Positions 3,957 to 44,070 of a stretch of 64,000 bases of DNA are shown here, piece by piece. The notes beneath the pieces are model-generated. The model did no database searches. It saw only the letters and a list, made by a program, of their open reading frames with translations, and had not been told where the DNA came from. This DNA is from a plasmid, in sequence record NZ_CP022071.1; one strand, written 5' to 3'. The position numbers and the translations under genes were made by a program. Positions within the stretch are counted from its first letter, which is position 1. Each line of letters starts with the position of its first letter.

Positions 3957-4012
3957 GGCTTCTCCCGCAAGTCAGAAAAATGATGTAATTCATCAGGCAT
4001 AATCAGCACACG

Positions 4013-4429
4013 TCAGCCCGTCTTACGGAGAAACATTCGCCGCATCTCACGCGTCAGCTGCTTCTTCTCCCATCCGTAAGGGAAAATAATGCTGTAGTCC
4101 CTCCTCTCAGGGAGGATATCAGGGCCCGCGACGATTCGCGCCACCTCCTTATTCAGGCGTTCTCCTCGCCAGCCATAAGCCGCCAGTCGCTTACGGATAC
4201 GTGCAACGGGAAAACGTTTATCGGAGTGACGGGGGAAGAGTAACGTCCCGTCCTCATTTCGTTTGACACCAAACATATCCAGAGACTGTTCGATCACCAC
4301 TGTTCGAACGGGGAAATGCTCACGCATAGTTTTCAACATATTCTCCATTTCAGACTCCTGAATTAATCCCTGCAACTGTCTGACCAGCCAGAGAGCAGCG
4401 TTATGCTGGCTCACTCCCTGCGTCATCAT
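4013..4429 (-). CDS. hypothetical protein, possibly the 3' remnant of the adjacent disrupted exonuclease gene
   Basis: 138-aa ORF in the same frame as ORF 4532..5050 but separated from it by stop codons. Confidence 0.3.
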   Translation of the reverse strand: MMTQGVSQHNAALWLVRQLQGLIQESEMENMLKTMREHFPVRTVVIEQSLDMFGVKRNEDGTLLFPRHSDKRFPVARIRKRLAAYGWRGERLNKEVARIVAGPDILPERRDYSIIFPYGWEKKQLTREMRRMFLRKTG

Positions 4430-5050: not shown

Positions 5051-6149
5051 CGGTCTGTTTATTGCCTGAAAGCGCCGCCATCAGTGACTGGTTCTGACGC
5101 TTCAGGGCTTCAGCCTCACCACGCAGTGCCGCGACCGTTTCTTTCTCCCCCATCGTCTCCAGACGGGCATCATCACGCTGGTTTTCCAGCTGTGTGCAAC
5201 GCTCTGTCAGACTGGCTATTTCACTGCCCATACGCACCAGTTGCTCCGAGGAGGCCTTTTCCTGCGATTCCAGCCTTGCGGTGAGGCTGCTGACTCTGTC
5301 ACGTTCAAGTGCAATCTCACCGGCGCGCGCCTGCGTGTCAGCGATGGCCTGCTCGAGGCGTTGCTGCAGCGTTTCGCGGGTGGCCAGATGCTGCTGACGT
5401 TCTGAGGCCAGCGCATTTTCCTGCGATTCAAGGCGGGTAAGGAGAGTATTGACTTTATCGCGTTCAGACTTCAGTTCTTCTGTACGCGCATTAGCTTCGG
5501 CAGAAATTTGCTCCAGTCGTTTCTGCAGGTCTTCCCGCGTGTTTTTGTGCTGTGCCTGCTCCGCATTAAGCGCATCCTGCAGCACTGTCTTCTGCTCCTG
5601 ATACCGTTCCTCTCGCTGACGGGTATTCTCTTCAGCGGCCGCAAGACGCTCTTTCAGCTGGGCCATCTCCACATCATGCTGCTGACGCAGTGAACGTTCT
5701 GACTCCAGCGCCAGCGTCAAACTGTCATATCTGTCCTGCAGTTCATCCAGTTTTTCTTCCAGGTCGTCGACTGTCTGCGCGGCGTCGGCCAGCTCCCGCT
5801 CTGCCTGTGCGGTCTGTTCACCGGCAGCACGCGTGACTTCCGCAACCCGGCGTTCTGCAGCCCGGACCGCCTTGTCATTCAGTTCTGTCGCCAGCTGGGT
5901 GATGCGTTCGGACAGCGCGGCGGAGACGGCCTTCACTTCTTCAGCCACTTCCACTGGCAGCTCGGCAACGGGTTCAGTGACGACCGTGCTCTGTGAAGCC
6001 TGGTATTCGTCCCATATCTGGCGGAGACGTGTCGGATTGCCGCCACCCACCTGGTTACGTAGTGCGAACCCGGTGATATTCCGTCCTTCAGCCTGCAGGG
6101 CCAGCCCTGCTTCAATAATCTGTTCTGGTTCGTATGTCGCCGGACGCAT
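5034..6149 (-). CDS. tlpA: TlpA-like coiled-coil DNA-binding autoregulator (KfrA N-terminal domain plus long heptad-repeat region)
   Basis: 371 aa; N-terminus MRPATYEPEQIIEAGLALQAEG...NPTRLRQIWDEYQ is KfrA_N-like, followed by ~300 aa rich in E/R/Q/L/A. Length and layout match pSLT TlpA as I remember it. Confidence 0.8.
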   Translation of the reverse strand: MRPATYEPEQIIEAGLALQAEGRNITGFALRNQVGGGNPTRLRQIWDEYQASQSTVVTEPVAELPVEVAEEVKAVSAALSERITQLATELNDKAVRAAERRVAEVTRAAGEQTAQAERELADAAQTVDDLEEKLDELQDRYDSLTLALESERSLRQQHDVEMAQLKERLAAAEENTRQREERYQEQKTVLQDALNAEQAQHKNTREDLQKRLEQISAEANARTEELKSERDKVNTLLTRLESQENALASERQQHLATRETLQQRLEQAIADTQARAGEIALERDRVSSLTARLESQEKASSEQLVRMGSEIASLTERCTQLENQRDDARLETMGEKETVAALRGEAEALKRQNQSLMAALSGNKQTGGQNA

Positions 6150-6179
6150 CTGTCAGTCTCCGCATAAAGGGGTATGCTT

Positions 6180-6936: not shown

Positions 6937-7220
6937 TCACATAAGTCAGTGAAAATAAATCAGGCTTATTCAACGTTGCGAAGGTTCTTTGGCCAGTTGC
7001 TGGAGCTACTTCCCGAAATCAGGAAAGCCTGCGGCTGAAAGTACATCAGCAACAGCACTGGCTCTGGGATGGCCACGTTCAAGCCAGACCAGACTGAGAG
7101 CCACACCTGATTTCTCCGTATCATAACTGTGACGCGACAACCGGAATTACCAAACGGACACTCAAAGAATGAGATGAACGCTCCAGACTTATGAAGTTCG
7201 GAACACACAGAGTTCCTAGT

Positions 7221-7441
7221 TGTAGCGGCTCGCAATCGAAATCCCCCCGACTCGCAATCAGCGCAAATTTCGGCTCACATTAACTGCAAATGAAAAATGC
7301 CACCGGCTCACATTAAGTGACAATGGGCTCGCATTTATCCTGCCCGGCTCGCAATCCATTCCACCGGGCTCACAATAACTGCAAGTCAACTTCGTCATAT
7401 CGGCAAACCGACTGCCAGCATTCTATTTTCCAGTTCGACTG
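7221..7441. repeat. Left terminal inverted repeat of the transposon with multiple 19-22 bp subrepeats
   Basis: Aligned against the reverse complement of 11621-11838; near-identical over ~170 bp and ~85% over the inner 50 bp. Confidence 0.7.
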
Positions 7442-37908: not shown

Positions 37909-38243
37909 CCGCTTTCCCGGAAGACGGGGATTTCAGCCGGATATGGTACGACCGGCTTTGTATCGAATTTAACAGCGACGGCGGACTGAGTCCGGCTGAG
38001 CTGCGGGTTATCCGGCTGCTGCTGCGGGGCTATAACAGCGGGCAGATTGCTGCCCTCTGTTTTCGCAGCGTCAAAACCATTTCTGCCCAGAAAGGCCAGG
38101 CTTTCAGGCGCCTCGGCGTCCGGAATGATGCAACCCTGTTGCCGACCCTGATGCTTCTGGGGATGGTGACACTGTACACCGACCTGAACCGGGTTCATTC
38201 ACTGGAAGAAGCCGGCCTGGAATGCGGACCGGAGGCCGGATAA
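37893..38243 (+). CDS. srgD: LuxR/GerE-type HTH regulator
   Basis: LSPAELRVIRLLLRGYNSGQIAALCFRSVKTISAQKGQAFRRLGV is a GerE HTH. Position matches srgD in the pefI-srgC operon (from memory). Confidence 0.7.
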   Translation: MASALTAFPEDGDFSRIWYDRLCIEFNSDGGLSPAELRVIRLLLRGYNSGQIAALCFRSVKTISAQKGQAFRRLGVRNDATLLPTLMLLGMVTLYTDLNRVHSLEEAGLECGPEAG

Positions 38244-38487
38244 GTATCACTGAAAGTTATTTTATGATGTTCATGAAATTTATTTATTACGCCTGTCTGG
38301 CCGTAGTTATATTAATGGCAATGGTCTTTTGTGTGTCAGTATTTTTTATTCTGGAAAACGCATAACCGGAATATTCCGGCTGCCGCCTTAATGACCATAC
38401 CTGATGAATTAATATTTACTGCTGCTGTCAGGCGGTGCCGTTAAGCGGCCTTTCGTTCTGTATATCTGTTATCCATGGAGTGTTTCC

Positions 38488-39141
38488 GTGACGATGAATT
38501 ATGCCCGGGATCTGTTTTCCCTGAAGGGAATATTATTTTCTTTTTTGTTAGCTGGCTGCGTCTGTCCTGTGGTTGCGCAGGAGTGGGAGTCCATAACTCC
38601 CCCGGTGGTTGATGCCCCCGCTGTGGTGGAGTTCTTTTCCTTTTACTGCCCGCCCTGCTATGCGTTCTCACAGACAATGGGCGTGGACCAGGCCATCCGG
38701 CACGTACTGCCGCAAGGTAGCCGGATGGTCAAATACCATGTCAGCCTGCTGGGCCCCCTCGGCCATGAGCTGACACGGGCCTGGGCGCTGGCCATGGTGA
38801 TGAAGGAAACTGACGTGATCGAGAAGGCCTTCTTCACGGCCGGCATGGTGGAGAAACGCCTGCATTCCCCGGACGATGTCCGCCGGGTGTTTATGTCTGC
38901 CACCGGTATCAGTCGTGGGGAGTATGACAGAAGTATAAAAAGTCCCGCCGTGAATGACATGGTGGCATTACAGGAACGGCTGTTTAAGGAATATGGCGTG
39001 AGGGGGACGCCTTCCGTGTATGTCCGTGGCCGTTACCATATCAACAATGCCGCCTTCGGTGCATTCTCCGTCGAAAACTTCAGGAGCCGTTATGCTGCGG
39101 TGGTCCGGAAACTGCTGGCCGGTAACCCTGATGCAGACTGA
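38488..39141 (+). CDS. srgA: SrgA DsbA-like disulfide oxidoreductase
   Basis: CPPC active site (FYCPPCYAF) in a thioredoxin fold, 217 aa. Confidence 0.9.
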   Translation: MTMNYARDLFSLKGILFSFLLAGCVCPVVAQEWESITPPVVDAPAVVEFFSFYCPPCYAFSQTMGVDQAIRHVLPQGSRMVKYHVSLLGPLGHELTRAWALAMVMKETDVIEKAFFTAGMVEKRLHSPDDVRRVFMSATGISRGEYDRSIKSPAVNDMVALQERLFKEYGVRGTPSVYVRGRYHINNAAFGAFSVENFRSRYAAVVRKLLAGNPDAD

Positions 39142-39273
39142 TGATAAAGGCACCATACAGGCCGGAGATATCCTCCCGCTCCGTGCACTGATTCTCCTGC
39201 TGCTGACCAGCGTCTTTATCTCCGGCTTTCTGACCGGCGTCCTGGTCGTGATCTGGCTTATCAGCCGTGGGAC

Positions 39274-40173
39274 ATGATGTGGAGTCCGGTCTCCCCTGTA
39301 ACAGAAAACATAACCTTCACCACCACGATGTTCAGATATTTATGTAATCAGAAAGCAGCACTGCTGACCGCCATTCTCCTGATGGCGGCCGGCGTGCTCA
39401 CCCTGTGTTTCCCGGAGTCCTGGTACCCGCAGGAAACAGAATGGCATCTCACGGCAGAAAAAGAAATTACCGGGATACACGGCGGCCTCTCCGGCCTGAC
39501 ATGGAACCCGGACAGCAGAACGCTGTTTGCCGTGACCGACCCCCCCTCCTCGGTGGTGGAGCTGGACACGGAAGGGAACGTGCTGCGGGTGATACCGTCA
39601 GACGGCGACCACGATTTTGAGGCCATCGAATACCTCGGCGGGAACCGCTATGCCCTGTCCCGGGAGCGGGAGCGGACGCTCACCACCCACTGCATTGACA
39701 GCAGCACGACCGTCCTCCCGCCGGCAACATACAGCCTGACGCTGGATGTGAACAGGCACAGCGACAATGCCGGTTTTGAAGGCCTTGCCCGGGGACGGGG
39801 AGAGCATGCCCTGATGGTGGCGCAGGAGAAAAAACCGCTGCGGCTTTACGTGACGGACCGGAGCCCTGATGCGCTGTCGGTGAGTGACTCGCTGACACAC
39901 CGGGCGTCCCTGCCATGGTTCCTGAAGGATATCTCCGGTCTGCATTATGACCGGAACAACGGGCTCCTGTATGTACTTTCCCATGAGTCTGCCGTGGTCG
40001 TGGTGTCGGGCCTGGACGGCGGGAGGAAAGTGATGTCGCTGCACCGGGGACTCTGCGGCCTGCGAAGCGATATCCCGCAGGCGGAGGGGATAACCTCAGA
40101 TGACCGGGACACGCTGTGGATAGTCAGTGAACCGAATCTGTTTTACCGCTTCACCCGCACGGCAGCGTCCTGA
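39274..40173 (+). CDS. srgB: SrgB SdiA-regulated / YjiK-like beta-propeller lipoprotein
   Basis: 299 aa with signal/lipobox region ...LTAILLMAAGVLTLC, placed between srgA and rck. Confidence 0.8.
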   Translation: MMWSPVSPVTENITFTTTMFRYLCNQKAALLTAILLMAAGVLTLCFPESWYPQETEWHLTAEKEITGIHGGLSGLTWNPDSRTLFAVTDPPSSVVELDTEGNVLRVIPSDGDHDFEAIEYLGGNRYALSRERERTLTTHCIDSSTTVLPPATYSLTLDVNRHSDNAGFEGLARGRGEHALMVAQEKKPLRLYVTDRSPDALSVSDSLTHRASLPWFLKDISGLHYDRNNGLLYVLSHESAVVVVSGLDGGRKVMSLHRGLCGLRSDIPQAEGITSDDRDTLWIVSEPNLFYRFTRTAAS

Positions 40174-40187
40174 GGATGAAGCGGCGT
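39978..40187. repeat. inverted repeat copy 1 (3' end of srgB), partner at 41929-42139
   Basis: ~210 bp; the reverse complement matches 41929-42139 with one internal mismatch. Confidence 0.8.
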
Positions 40188-40262
40188 TACGGGTGTGCAG
40201 GAGCAGAAAGCACACCTTCTGTCATAACACAATGAACTTAACTGTGTTCAGGGAGTTTTATC

Positions 40263-40820
40263 ATGAAAAAAATCGTTCTGTCCTCACTGCTGCTGTCCGC
40301 AGCCGGGCTGGCTGCCGTACCGGTGGCACAGGCTGACACCCATTCCGTGTCGGTGGGATATGCCCAGAGCCGGATAGAGCATTTTAAGGATATCCGTGGG
40401 GTGAACCTGAAATACCGCTATGAGGCTCAGACGCCGCTGGGACTGATGGCGTCGTTCAGTTGGCAGTCAGGTAAGCGCGGAGAGTCCGGTGGCATTCCTG
40501 GCGGAATGAGCTGGCGTGATGATGTGAAGGCGACGTACTGGTCGCTGATGGCGGGTCCGGCTGTCCGTGTGAACGAGCTGGTATCTCTGTATGCACTGGC
40601 CGGTGCCGGTACCGGCAGGGCTGAAGTGAAAGAGCGTATCAGCATGCCGGGATACAACGGGCGGTTCACGGGTTCGGAGCGCAGAACGGGGTTTGCCTGG
40701 GGAGCCGGCGTACAGTTTAATCCGGTGGAAAATGTGGTCATCGATCTGGGCTATGAGGGAAGTAAAGTTGGCGCAGCGAAACTGAACGGCGTTAACGTTG
40801 GTGTCGGTTACCGGTTCTGA
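40263..40820 (+). CDS. rck: Rck complement-resistance outer membrane protein (Ail/Lom/OmpX family)
   Basis: 185 aa, MKKIVLSSLLLSAAGLAAVPVAQA...VGVGYRF beta-barrel. Confidence 0.95.
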   Translation: MKKIVLSSLLLSAAGLAAVPVAQADTHSVSVGYAQSRIEHFKDIRGVNLKYRYEAQTPLGLMASFSWQSGKRGESGGIPGGMSWRDDVKATYWSLMAGPAVRVNELVSLYALAGAGTGRAEVKERISMPGYNGRFTGSERRTGFAWGAGVQFNPVENVVIDLGYEGSKVGAAKLNGVNVGVGYRF

Positions 40821-41086
40821 TAACGGAGAGCAGGAAAGGGAGCGGAGCCGCAGGCTTCCGCTCCCGGTCAGATATGATGAAAAACATAACATTCAGCGCA
40901 TCTTTTTTCAGGGAATTATTCTGGTTTGTGGTGATGGCAGGAAGCTGGTTTGTGGTGTGGTACATGCCCGGGCTGCTGCAGCACTACTACTGACAACCAC
41001 AGGCCCCGGCATCACCCGGCCGGGGCTTCAGGGGGGGAGAGCAGTACAAACACCGGCCCCGTCATGGGAGGGAATGGCAGGTAATA

Positions 41087-41845
41087 ATGGAGCTGGATAA
41101 ATATCTTCTTTTTTTCCTGGCAGGAGGATCAACCTTCAATCAGGGAAAGGCATTTTCATTTCGTTGCGCTCAGGACAGTATTGTCCTGACGAAAGTGCAT
41201 CAGACAGAGATGCATTTTTACCGGTGGTACCATCATGTGGTGATAACAAGGGAAACGCTGTGCCGGTTTGCCCGGCAGCTGGATGTGGATGTTCTTAAAT
41301 TTTATATCCCGAAAGACATCCCCCGGTACCTTGTGCAGCCTTGCCCAGAGGACTCTGTGTTCCGTCCGTTGATGGTGAGACTCTGTGCCGGAACGGATAA
41401 CAGTTACGGAGAGACCGGACCAGAGAATCCGTTCCTGACGTTTGCACTGGTATCGGCCTTTTGTGAGCAGGATATTTTTTTCCCTTTCCTGAAGACATGC
41501 CTGAAACAAAGTATGGCAGACCAGGTGGCTACGGTGATAAACCGGAATGTGAGTGAAAACTGGACCATACACCGGGTTGCCGGCGAGCTGTATGTCAGTG
41601 TCAGCCTGTTAAAGAAAAAACTGAAAGAGGAGAATACATCCTACACACGTATTCTGCTGGAATGCAGGATGAAAAAAGCATCGGAGTTAATTGTTATGCA
41701 GGAGGGGGCGGTCAAGAAAGTGGCATATCAGTGCGGGTACAGTAGTGTGCCGTATTTTATCAGCCAGTTCAGGAAATATTACGGATACACGCCTTCAAGA
41801 TGCAAGCCTGACGGAAATTTATTTTATAGTTTTATTGCAAAATAA
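41087..41845 (+). CDS. srgC: SrgC AraC-family regulator
   Basis: C-terminal AraC HTH (...YQCGYSSVPYFISQFRKYYGYTPS); start uncertain. Confidence 0.8.
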   Translation: MELDKYLLFFLAGGSTFNQGKAFSFRCAQDSIVLTKVHQTEMHFYRWYHHVVITRETLCRFARQLDVDVLKFYIPKDIPRYLVQPCPEDSVFRPLMVRLCAGTDNSYGETGPENPFLTFALVSAFCEQDIFFPFLKTCLKQSMADQVATVINRNVSENWTIHRVAGELYVSVSLLKKKLKEENTSYTRILLECRMKKASELIVMQEGAVKKVAYQCGYSSVPYFISQFRKYYGYTPSRCKPDGNLFYSFIAK

Positions 41846-41928
41846 CAGTAAAACCGTCGTATAACATCCGGCTGCAATCCGGGGTTGTAACTTCTGGCAT
41901 AAAGGCTCCAATCCTCAAGCCATGGAGA

Positions 41929-42139
41929 CGCCGCTTCATCCTCAGGACGCTGCCGTGCGGGTGAAGCGGTAAAACAGATTCGGTTCACTGACTATCCACA
42001 GCGTGTCCCGGTCATCTGAGGTTATCCCCTCCGCCTGCGGGATATCGCTTCGCAGGCCGCAGAGTCCCCGGTGCAGCGACATCACTTTCCTCCCGCCGTC
42101 CAGGTCCGACACCACGACCACGGCAGACTCATGAGAATT
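41929..42139. repeat. inverted repeat copy 2 (duplicated srgB 3' end, minus orientation; includes ORF 41942..42238)
   Basis: Encodes ...SHESAVVVVSDLDGGRKVMSLHRGLCGLRSDIPQAEGITSDDRDTLWIVSEPNLFYRFTRTAAS, identical to the SrgB C-terminus apart from a G to D change. Confidence 0.8.
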
Positions 42140-42267
42140 GAGTTTGTAGTGCGTTCTGAGCAATTTTTTCTGCTTTGCTGGTACTTTCTGTTTAAAACGG
42201 TTCTGAGTGGCTCCTGTTACGTTCAGGGGATGGAGCAAAAGGAACGTATGACGTCACGGTAGCTAAA

Positions 42268-42331
42268 ATTGTCAACTGCTGAATCGCGGGGTCCCGCGCC
42301 TTTGGCGTGGGTTCCGATTCAGTGGTTGACA
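42268..42331. other. large imperfect hairpin (18-bp arms TTGTCAACTGCTGAATCG / CGATTCAGTGGTTGACAA) with a nested CGCGGG-GT-CCCGCG palindrome
   Basis: Read directly from the sequence, just beyond the oriR-distal side of the RepFIIA replicon. Candidate single-strand initiation or structural site. Confidence 0.35.
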
Positions 42332-42699
42332 ACTGCATATAAAATACCCTGCTGGCGGGGTGATGGTTCACGTAGTGGGCCATCGCCCTGCAAAGCCAGA
42401 CGGGACATAACGCCACTCAGTAATTTAGTTACATCATTCATTATTAAAAGCGACTCCATTCCGGCCCTTTGGGCCGGGGCGGCGGCGCTTTTCAGTGGTG
42501 GGAATGGGCTGGATATCAGGTTTTTGCTCCGGTTTCGTTGGTCAGGATTTTGGATGTTGTAACTATTTGCATGACCGGGGCCTGGCGCGTCGCGACGGGA
42601 GGTACTAATGTTGTTTCCGAACCGGCGCGGACGTGAGTCCGCTGCAAGGGCGGGCATTCTCTGGAACCTGTCCACAGGGCAGGTGATGAATAGGTTATT

Positions 42700-43000
42700 T
42701 ATTTATAAGAGAGAAAGATTATGTATTTAAAAGAAGTACAGATCTGGGGTTTAAAGGAAACCACGCACTTTGAAATCAGGTCGCCTGGCGCTTTGTCAGT
42801 ATATCGGTTGTAACTTTATGGAAAGGTCCCTTGCAGTTATCTGTGAGTAACTGAATATTGCGACCGGAAATGGCTCAGGCGGGAACATTTCTGGCCATTC
42901 TGGCAGCAGAATGAGAGATATTTTGGCAGGAAGAACGAGCGTTCCGCGCAGAAAACAGGCGGCACCCGGCGACAGACGTACAAAATCCTCCGACGTCAGC
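42700..43000 (-). other. RepFIIA oriR region (approximate)
   Basis: Non-coding stretch immediately downstream of repA1, as in R1/R100. Exact oriR signals not identified. Confidence 0.3.
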
Positions 43001-43022
43001 CGGATTTTCATAATCTGGTGGG

Positions 43023-43892
43023 TTATATGGGGACGGTGGCCATGGTCAGTCGCGTGTAGTTTTTGCCCCGCGACATCATCATGCGCTCTTTCACGCGCCG
43101 CTGCAGCTCCCGCTTCATGGCATCAAGCCCGCCGGTAAAGCGTCCGCTGGCGTATTCCCGCGTCAGCTGCTGTTTCACCAGTGTTTCGATGTCCTTACGG
43201 CTTCTGTCCGCGTCACGCCGCGCCCGGGCGCGTTTCAGTCCGTGCAGTTTACGTTCAGACTGGTAGCTGCGGAACCGTTCGCGCACAAATCGCCAGGCTT
43301 TCGCTATCAGTTCATCCATCTCCAGCGGCTCCAGATTCTGCTTTTTGCGCTGCTGATTTTCCCATTCGACACGACTGCGGCGGGCGGCCATAACAGCCAC
43401 GTCAGAAACGTCGAGCGCGGAGAACAGTGCCGGCGTGAAGGTGATATCGGTCGGGATGTTGCAGCCAATCTGCGGATCGTACTCGGTCTGGTAGGTAATC
43501 AGCCCCAGCTCTGCCATAAACTTCAGCGCCCGTGTGGCGCGGGTGATGGACAGATTACCACTTTTTGACTCAGTGGCCAGACCGCACTCTATAGCCAGAT
43601 TGGTGATGGATCTCTGTACACGGTTGGCCAGTGGATCATAATGGAAGCACAACCCCTGAAGCAGCGCATCGATGGCACGACGGCGCAGCAAAGGCGGCAT
43701 CCGGTGACGCTTTCCCAGCGAACGAACGAACGCCACATGGACGGAAAAATCAAAACGGGACGTGAACCCTTCGGCTTTCGCCATCAGCTTACGACAGAAC
43801 GGCAGGGTCTTTTTCCCTTCTCTCGGCGTGAATTCCGGATTCGGATTTTTGACCTGTCGGTAATGAGTGAACAGTGTTCGGGTGTCAGTCAC
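43023..43892 (-). CDS. repA1: RepA1 replication initiator (IncFIIA)
   Basis: ...[39 protein letters not shown]...[24 protein letters not shown] is near-identical to R100/R1 RepA1. The probable start is the second GTG (VTD...), overlapping the tap stop. Confidence 0.9.
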
Positions 43893-43963
43893 TTCTGCCT
43901 GCACTTACAATGCACGGAAGGAGTAAATGCCACAGAAACAAGTATTGAAATTTTCTGAGCATA
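43886..43963 (-). CDS. tap: tap (repA6) leader peptide
   Basis: Hand-translated 25-codon [28 protein letters not shown] whose stop overlaps the repA1 start. Confidence 0.45.
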
Positions 43964-43964
43964 A

Positions 43965-44070
43965 AACTATACTCCCTGCATAGCCTGATTGGTGGCTATA
44001 CAGTTTAAGTAGGCCCCGTTAATCTTTCGTTCCCGCCAAGAAATGAGAAGATTATCGGGGTTTTTGCTTT
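43965..44070 (+). ncRNA. copA: CopA-like antisense RNA controlling repA1
   Basis: Lies opposite the repA leader. Stem-loop AATCTT...CGCCAA...AAGATT at 44021-44053 (loop CGCCAA as in CopA/CopT), followed by GGGGTTTTTGCTTTTCT. The 5' end was not mapped. Confidence 0.5.

Follow-up and report, generated by a model that had tools for sequence, protein, structure and literature searches.

The stretch of DNA analysed here, called the window throughout, comprises 64,000 nucleotides of record NZ_CP022071.1, a pSLT-type Salmonella virulence plasmid for which gene annotation was taken from a 99.9%-identical S. Typhimurium plasmid, and our subject is the pair of long inverted repeats (the left and right arms) that encloses its rck and srgC genes. 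Rck is an invasin and complement-resistance factor whose acquisition and regulation are open questions (Koczerka et al. 2021, PMC8549739; Mambu et al. 2017, PMC5727353). The local gene order is pefI, srgD, srgA (DsbA family), srgB, rck and srgC, followed by the IncFII repA gene on the opposite strand, and Mambu et al. (2017, PMC5727353) place the promoters of the pefI-srgC operon upstream of pefI, with activity at 37 degrees C that depends on SdiA and on acyl-homoserine lactone (AHL). We observed a defined repeat anatomy, its conservation among plasmids, co-variation between its two arms and an absence of fixed inversions, and from the sequence comparisons we infer that the right arm is probably an old rearrangement scar whose near-identity to the left arm has been kept by gene conversion, rather than one half of a working flip-switch. 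The features on which this interpretation is built are the following, in window coordinates.

39274..40173, plus strand: srgB, intact, SdiA-regulated/YjiK family (Pfam PF06977, E=2e-83, profile positions 2-249 of 249)
39978..40187, plus strand: left arm, made up of srgB codons ~235-299 with their stop codon and the next 14 bp (repeat search, base comparison)
40263..40820, plus strand: rck, Ail/Lom-family outer membrane protein (Pfam PF06316, E=4e-32)
41087..41845, plus strand: srgC, AraC-family regulator (Pfam AraC-type helix-turn-helix)
41892..41929, plus strand: 38-bp relic of an ISNCY-family insertion sequence (IS), from the region just upstream of the transposase start (95% identity to ~690 Klebsiella plasmids)
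41928..42137, minus strand: right arm, a pseudogene fragment consisting of a truncated srgB 3' end in inverted orientation (repeat search, base comparison)
41942..42238, minus strand: 98-codon open reading frame (ORF), 33 unrelated codons plus a 65-codon SrgB C-terminal fragment (ORF list, Pfam)
42145..43904, minus strand: IncFII replicon backbone, with repA at 43023-43904 (alignment with a Weltevreden plasmid)
43980-44069: CopA RNA (Rfam)

In a repeat search over the window just two inverted repeats reached 60 nt or more, one of which is the pair of 210-nt arms at 39978-40187 and 41928-42137, 99% complementary and separated by 1740 nt. Base by base the arms differ at 2 of 210 nt, at 39981 (C/T) and 40010 (G/A), and at 1 of 206 nt when counted from 39982; their similarity ends sharply at both boundaries and extends past neither, and identity over ~200 nt is far above chance expectation. 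The last 196 bp of srgB make up most of the left arm, and the right arm begins 82 bp past the srgC stop codon. The first-pass annotation had described the srgB 3' end as repeated in inverted orientation immediately after srgC, at 41929-42139 and with a single mismatch, and had staked that description on the two copies aligning at near-identity. The inverted copy is present and the alignment holds at 99%, with coordinates shifted by 1-2 bases; the single mismatch applies to 206 nt and becomes two over 210, and "immediately" has to give way to a gap of 82 bp. The accompanying statement that the arms bracket exactly rck and srgC stands as made, as the ORF list and Pfam place no other gene between them. 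A 98-codon ORF was likewise foreseen as a copy identical to the SrgB C-terminus, and such an ORF exists, but only two-thirds of it is SrgB-derived, that part carries one G-to-D change and a Pfam match limited to profile positions 183-249 of 249 (the last 67), and the other 33 codons are unrelated. Database records disagree on what to call it, with labels that range over "outer membrane protein", "hypothetical", "YjiK family" and "SdiA-regulated domain-containing protein". The intact srgB product is called "YjiK family protein" in identical plasmid records. The rck product is annotated as "complement resistance protein Rck" in a near-identical record.

Comparison of the two arms across plasmids provides the evidence that they exchange sequence. 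The set compared consisted of six plasmids that represent four or five lineages, with both arms taken from each. The base at arm positions 66, 75, 79, 91, 97, 100, 116 and 203 varies among lineages and is the same in both arms of each plasmid (6/6). Left and right arms within one plasmid differ at 2-3 sites (7 in plasmid CP075020), against 5-11 site differences when the same arm is compared between lineages, so that arms are ~99% identical within most plasmids versus 3-5% divergent between lineages. The arms thus show the pattern of concerted evolution, being closer within a plasmid than between lineages and carrying lineage-specific substitutions in both copies. Given a single origin of the repeat with fixed boundaries, for which we argue below, it is not credible that eight sites changed independently in parallel, and gene conversion would therefore have made the arms alike once the lineages had split. 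The eight co-varying sites in this way bear out the first-pass suggestion that the arms are capable of recombining. Most of the residual left-right differences fall in the outermost ~35 nt of the arms, as expected if conversion tracts often stop before the arm ends.

One polymorphism deserves separate mention. At 40010 (arm position 33, mirror position 42105, a Gly/Asp difference in SrgB) the left arm carries G in Typhimurium-type plasmids and A in Enteritidis-type plasmids, and in each type the right arm carries the opposite base. This swapped arrangement fits conversion in either direction or a double exchange, which one site cannot separate. A pseudogene arm can in this manner write changes into the functional srgB gene, of which the Gly/Asp difference at 40010 is an example. 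The closest parallels to such behaviour are the tufA/tufB genes, plastid inverted repeats and Y-chromosome palindromes, in all of which the copies are closer to each other within a genome than orthologues are between lineages, substitutions are shared by both copies, and recombination between copies could also invert the interval. Abdulkarim and Hughes (1996) are reported to have found that tufA and tufB of Salmonella Typhimurium, which lie in inverted orientation, undergo gene conversion as well as inversion. The present case differs from tufA/tufB in that one copy is a 210-bp non-functional fragment, that the interval is only 1.74 kb and lies on a plasmid, and that conversion is deduced from sequence comparison. 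The repeat is a new example of known phenomena, namely gene-fragment scars and the concerted evolution of inverted repeats.

The same co-variation could be read at the level of RNA. Read-through transcription of pefI-srgC into the right arm might generate a ~210-bp long-range duplex that loops out rck-srgC and serves as an RNase III substrate, and so determine how stable the srgB, rck and srgC mRNAs are or how they are processed. A predicted fold of 39900-42200 pairs 209 of the 210 arm positions with their mirror partners, with a duplex energy of -486 kcal/mol, and complementarity is kept across lineages through paired changes. A consensus scan of 39800-42800, a crude method, returned no promoter-like site and a single terminator-like site, inside srgC, so that no plus-strand terminator-like site was found from the srgC stop codon to the right arm or onward through 42800. 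Against an RNA element, gene conversion accounts for the paired changes without selection, plasmid CP075020 tolerates 7 mismatches, derivatives with one arm exist, and the terminator scan carries the weight of a crude consensus method. An Rfam scan of 37-46 kb matched solely the CopA RNA of the replicon and hence no family at the repeat itself, and no transcript-end data were found. On balance we consider a functional RNA duplex improbable.

The first-pass annotation had further proposed that the arms can support RecA-dependent inversion of the intervening ~1.7 kb, flipping rck-srgC relative to the pefI promoter. We generated the inverted isomer computationally and compared it with PLSDB alongside the native order (a 3.5-kb query), with a threshold of at least 80% coverage. 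Native order was recovered in 145 records, whereas the inverted isomer reached the threshold in none of its 1142 matching records; its maximum coverage was 62%, which corresponds to the middle piece aligned on the opposite strand. In ~150 complete plasmids, which span many serovars, hosts and decades, the consensus is thus never the inverted form, and because inverted isomers are never the majority form in sequenced plasmids, the repeat is not a commonly flipped, regular on/off switch; these counts do not support inversion as an operating switch.

The first-pass reading deserves its own weighing as a rival explanation, in which RecA-dependent crossovers between the arms flip rck-srgC at a biologically meaningful rate between an on (native) and an off (inverted) state relative to the SdiA-dependent promoters upstream of pefI. 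Arms of 206-210 nt at 99% identity are suitable substrates, they demonstrably recombine, and the inverted isomer would leave srgB intact because the arms include the srgB stop codon. The position of the operon promoters upstream of pefI (Mambu et al. 2017, PMC5727353) fits such uncoupling, and Typhimurium-type and Enteritidis-type plasmids carry the two bases of the arm position 33 polymorphism the opposite way round. However, none of the ~150 complete plasmids is inverted, the swapped polymorphism is a single site equally explained by conversion, and neither the cassette nor its neighbours, srgB and IncFII repA, supply a recombinase gene in the ORF list, the annotation or Pfam. Recombination between repeats of ~200 bp is moreover rare, so that inverted molecules are expected to form a very small minority, which also counts against an invertible cassette. 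Rare crossovers almost certainly accompany the conversions, and we regard a switch of meaningful rate as very unlikely. Comparison with established inversion systems points the same way. The hin H-segment, fimS and the shufflons resemble the rck-srgC arrangement in having a short segment with surface-protein genes or promoters between inverted repeats, whose inversion alters expression. They differ in using repeats of 9-30 bp and a dedicated adjacent recombinase, where this locus has 210 bp of gene sequence and no recombinase, and in that both of their orientations are common, where one orientation is seen here in ~150 plasmids. The class of site-specific switches was accordingly rejected for the cassette, which has neither the short sites, nor the serine or tyrosine recombinase, nor, among PLSDB records, the two orientations that define it.

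Head-to-tail duplication of the whole arm-rck-srgC-arm unit, which adds 2.08-2.14 kb, was encountered in 9 of 163 records, with window-equivalent limits of 39988/40011 and 42104/42127. The right arm of the first copy is fused to the left arm of the second at exact mirror-image positions, through one of two junctions. The first, GGCAGA/TCTGCC at arm position 10/10, creates a perfect 2x200-bp palindrome in NZ_CP075142; the second, CCAGG/CCTGG, is centred on the native GGCC at position 33/33, has 2x177 symmetry with one mismatch, and occurs in eight Enteritidis-type plasmids (CP074239 among them; 61,451-61,453 bp, with NZ_CP074662 at 58,711 bp). Both junctions are mirror-symmetric and centred on a short palindrome, and such mirror symmetry is a signature of strand switching. 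Taken at face value, the repeat would drive real duplication of the cassette via strand switching at tiny palindromes in the arms and so raise the dosage of rck-srgC in some strains. In favour of this are the nine mirror-symmetric fusions among 163 records, the two independent junctions, and flanks of good quality, with 1 mismatch and 1 gap over 5.9 kb relative to a standard Enteritidis plasmid. But every one of the nine is a CFSAN assembly whose accession falls in a single block (CP0742xx-CP0751xx), no duplication was found in the remaining ~154 records, and the two cassette copies in each are identical to each other. The sole rck-positive record noticed from that batch that lacks the duplication is CP075020, whose arms are the most diverged. 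A perfect palindrome of 2x177-200 bp with no spacer should furthermore be unstable in wild-type (sbcCD+) enterobacteria owing to SbcCD, which likewise counts against amplification. The duplications are probably assembly- or library-related, and a genuine amplification module is in our assessment unlikely.

These junctions nonetheless invite comparison with the tandem inversion duplications with palindromic junctions that Kugelberg, Roth and colleagues are said to have described in Salmonella in 2010. The likeness lies in the mirror symmetry of the junctions in the nine assemblies, each centred on a 2-4-bp palindrome. The differences are that an inverted middle copy would here hide inside an arm, that the junctions are un-remodelled perfect palindromes, and that all cases come from a single assembly batch and may not exist in DNA.

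The distribution of the repeat argues for its age. Enteritidis-type plasmids, 97% identical to the window overall, retain both arms with unchanged boundaries and right-hand junctions, and the lineages represented by CP075020 and NZ_CP075142 likewise share these boundaries and junctions. The region that runs from the end of srgC into the IncFII backbone (41846-42300) and holds the right junction is covered to at least 80% in 154 records. A search for distant DNA matches to the rck-srgC segment returned 165 records, made up of 163 Salmonella plasmids, one Citrobacter and one Enterobacter, and at least 80% of the segment is covered in 154 of the 165; the Enterobacter record, on inspection, shares merely a 36-bp part of the IS relic and not rck-srgC. 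Chromosomal contexts of rck are also reported by Koczerka et al. (2021, PMC8549739). Chromosomal rck loci occur in S. Sandiego and S. Brandenburg.

A deletion derivative provides a further anchor. A "truncated srgB" has been described in the Paratyphi C plasmid pSPCV (Koczerka et al. 2021, PMC8549739), and BLAST against the window resolves its structure: in NC_012124 (23954-25617) the 5' half of srgB, up to 39723, runs straight into the right arm, of which the outer 50 nt, from 42088, remain. The deletion spans 2375 bp, removes rck and srgC, and has an 11-nt overlap at the join that corresponds to the following pair of direct repeats.

39713..39723, plus strand: microhomology TCCTCCCGCCG, 11 bp, at the left endpoint of the pSPCV deletion
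42088..42098, plus strand: second copy of TCCTCCCGCCG, inside the right arm, at the right endpoint of the pSPCV deletion

Because right-arm sequence follows the srgB 5' half in pSPCV, the repeat-bearing form is ancestral to that plasmid. The best explanation of these distributions would be that the architecture arose once, before the split of Typhimurium-type, Enteritidis-type and other rck-bearing plasmids, and that the deletion form in Paratyphi C descends from it. Other reduced forms of the region were also noted. The srgA gene (window ~38224-39164) is absent from pSPCV as well; the Typhimurium plasmid NZ_OM048934 (4001-5398) keeps only window positions 41803-43200, so that 43 bp of the srgC 3' end, the IS relic and the right arm remain next to the backbone; and in the Enteritidis-type plasmid NZ_CP023437 (7011-7764) an IS26 cuts srgC at window position 41199 and the right arm is lost.

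The junctions of the right arm are compatible with a scar. Moving outward from srgC, the order is 46 bp with no assigned identity, the 38-bp IS piece, the 210-bp inverted srgB piece, a few bases and then the replicon backbone. The IS relic, whose last base is 41929, shares 2 bp (AC) with the right arm at its inner end. In NZ_CP079147 the match to the relic sits 19 bp upstream of the coding sequence of an "ISNCY family transposase", ~50 bp inside the left boundary of the IS, a boundary deduced from the limits of BLAST matches to the IS only and to the flank only. When the whole IS from the Klebsiella plasmid was compared with the window, it matched through the 38-bp piece only; with its second end absent from the window, a simple IS insertion that kept both ends was rejected. 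Only 7-13 bp separate the outer end of the right arm from the point, 42145-42151, where homology to IncFII plasmids without the pef-srg region begins. This stack of fragments at the boundary of cargo and backbone reads as the expected residue of successive illegitimate or IS-associated rearrangements. It resembles the IS-mediated deletion and rearrangement scars of mosaic IncF plasmids in that short pieces of unrelated origin (38 bp of IS, 210 bp of gene and 7-13 bp of filler) are stacked at the replicon edge with 2-11 bp of microhomology at the junctions, and it differs in that the gene piece is an inverted copy of a nearby intact gene, which places a recombinogenic repeat around two virulence-associated genes.

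Whether the arms might instead be the ends of a mobile unit was considered together with the origin of rck-srgC. Genes ~78-83% identical to srgB end K88/fae-like fimbrial clusters in pOU1113 (Dublin), in pS19 (S. Infantis, pESI-like) and at a further locus (L016), where a FaeA/PapI-type regulator, a conserved 162-nt ORF and the srgB-like gene are followed by vapBC and ccdAB, with neither rck nor srgC. A chromosomal pefI-srgD-srgA-srgB arrangement without rck-srgC is described by Koczerka et al. (2021, PMC8549739). These comparisons suggest that a fimbrial operon with a PapI-like regulator and srgB formed an older module, and rck-srgC looks like an addition distal to it. No donor locus for rck-srgC was found by plasmid tblastn, a GTDB protein search or the distant DNA search: tblastn of SrgC against plasmids gave nothing at ~45%-80% identity outside Salmonella virulence plasmids, the search of GTDB species representatives gave only a 29%-identity AraC match in a Bacillota metagenome-assembled genome. 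An exact rck 28-mer had 0 matches in metagenome contigs and 0 in genome contigs, which supplied no further context or orientation. Regional G+C content is uneven (srgB 60%, rck 58%, srgC 46%).

If the arms were terminal inverted repeats of a transposable rck-srgC unit, one would point to the two cargo genes exactly bracketed between them and to the adjoining IS relic. The arms are, however, a gene fragment that matches only the C-terminal part of the SdiA-regulated domain, there is no transposase, and the IS relic is only 38 bp long; the left arm is continuous with an intact srgB, every complete PLSDB cassette shares the right-hand junction to the IncFII backbone, and SrgC has no close relatives elsewhere. 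A mobile cassette is thus extremely improbable and close to refuted. Assignment to the composite transposons was rejected as well, as the repeats are not IS or transposon ends and the unit was not seen in varied contexts among PLSDB records, and Campbell-type integration was rejected as an origin because it would leave direct, not inverted, repeats. The first-pass annotation had also held that the repeats mark how rck may have been acquired. They do mark the rearranged distal edge of the island, beside the IS relic and the backbone, but the mechanism of acquisition is not revealed by them, because an inverted flanking repeat is the footprint of neither Campbell-type integration nor transposition.

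Together, these observations favour the scar interpretation, in which the right arm would be what is left, in truncated and inverted form, of a second copy of srgB or else of an inverted duplication, at the right edge of the pef-srg-rck island, wedged between the 38-bp IS relic and the IncFII backbone. This remnant would have originated once, before the rck-bearing plasmid lineages diverged, and been inherited with fixed boundaries. Arms of 210 bp should be long enough for homologous recombination and hence for repeated exchange by gene conversion, and it is because of such repeated conversion that the arms would be ~99% identical within plasmids yet 3-5% different between lineages. A reciprocal crossover would, in turn, flip the 1.74 kb that carry rck-srgC, which would then no longer be coupled to the promoters upstream of pefI. 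The rck-srgC pair sits distal to the ancestral module of fimbrial regulator and srgB, closed off at the replicon boundary by the IS relic and the inverted srgB fragment.

Several points weigh against this interpretation. The series of events behind the inverted 210-bp copy was not reconstructed; it would take at least 2-3 illegitimate junctions, and no intermediate was encountered. Gene conversion is the presumed mechanism of homogenisation, and its dependence on RecA is likewise presumed. Co-variation that preserves complementarity is also expected from selection on a functional DNA or RNA stem. Consensus assemblies are blind to inversion isomers at low frequency. Finally, in CP075020, an Enteritidis-labelled plasmid of 100 kb with its arms at locus positions 4001-4210 and 5951-6160, the 7 arm differences are mostly unique changes in the srgB copy, whose 3' end may have been replaced from another allele, and because of these seven sites homogenisation must be regarded as episodic.

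A more active role for the repeat can be formulated by combining the alternatives, with low-frequency inverted (silent) isomers and real tandem duplications (double dose) making up a working recombination module, and with the read-through RNA duplex as a possible extra layer. We judge this combined possibility quite unlikely; if true, Rck expression could vary among the cells of a Salmonella population with no recombinase involved. Only a demonstrated physiological use of inversion, duplication or RNA pairing would alter the current understanding of Rck function. The repeat was not found described in the Rck literature searched, which included the two main Rck papers, older subscription papers being outside our reach. 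There is also a practical consequence, in that short-read assemblies will break at a repeat of 210 bp and long-read assemblers may be misled near rck, which affects typing by srgB, rck and srgC.

The second long inverted repeat of the window lies at 7216-7437 and 11622-11843, with arms of 222 nt that are 92% complementary and 4184 nt apart. It encloses genes that annotation in other records assigns to carbonic anhydrase, a recombinase family, an IS481-family transposase and an ExeA family, and because of this gene content the unit looks like a transposon-like module.

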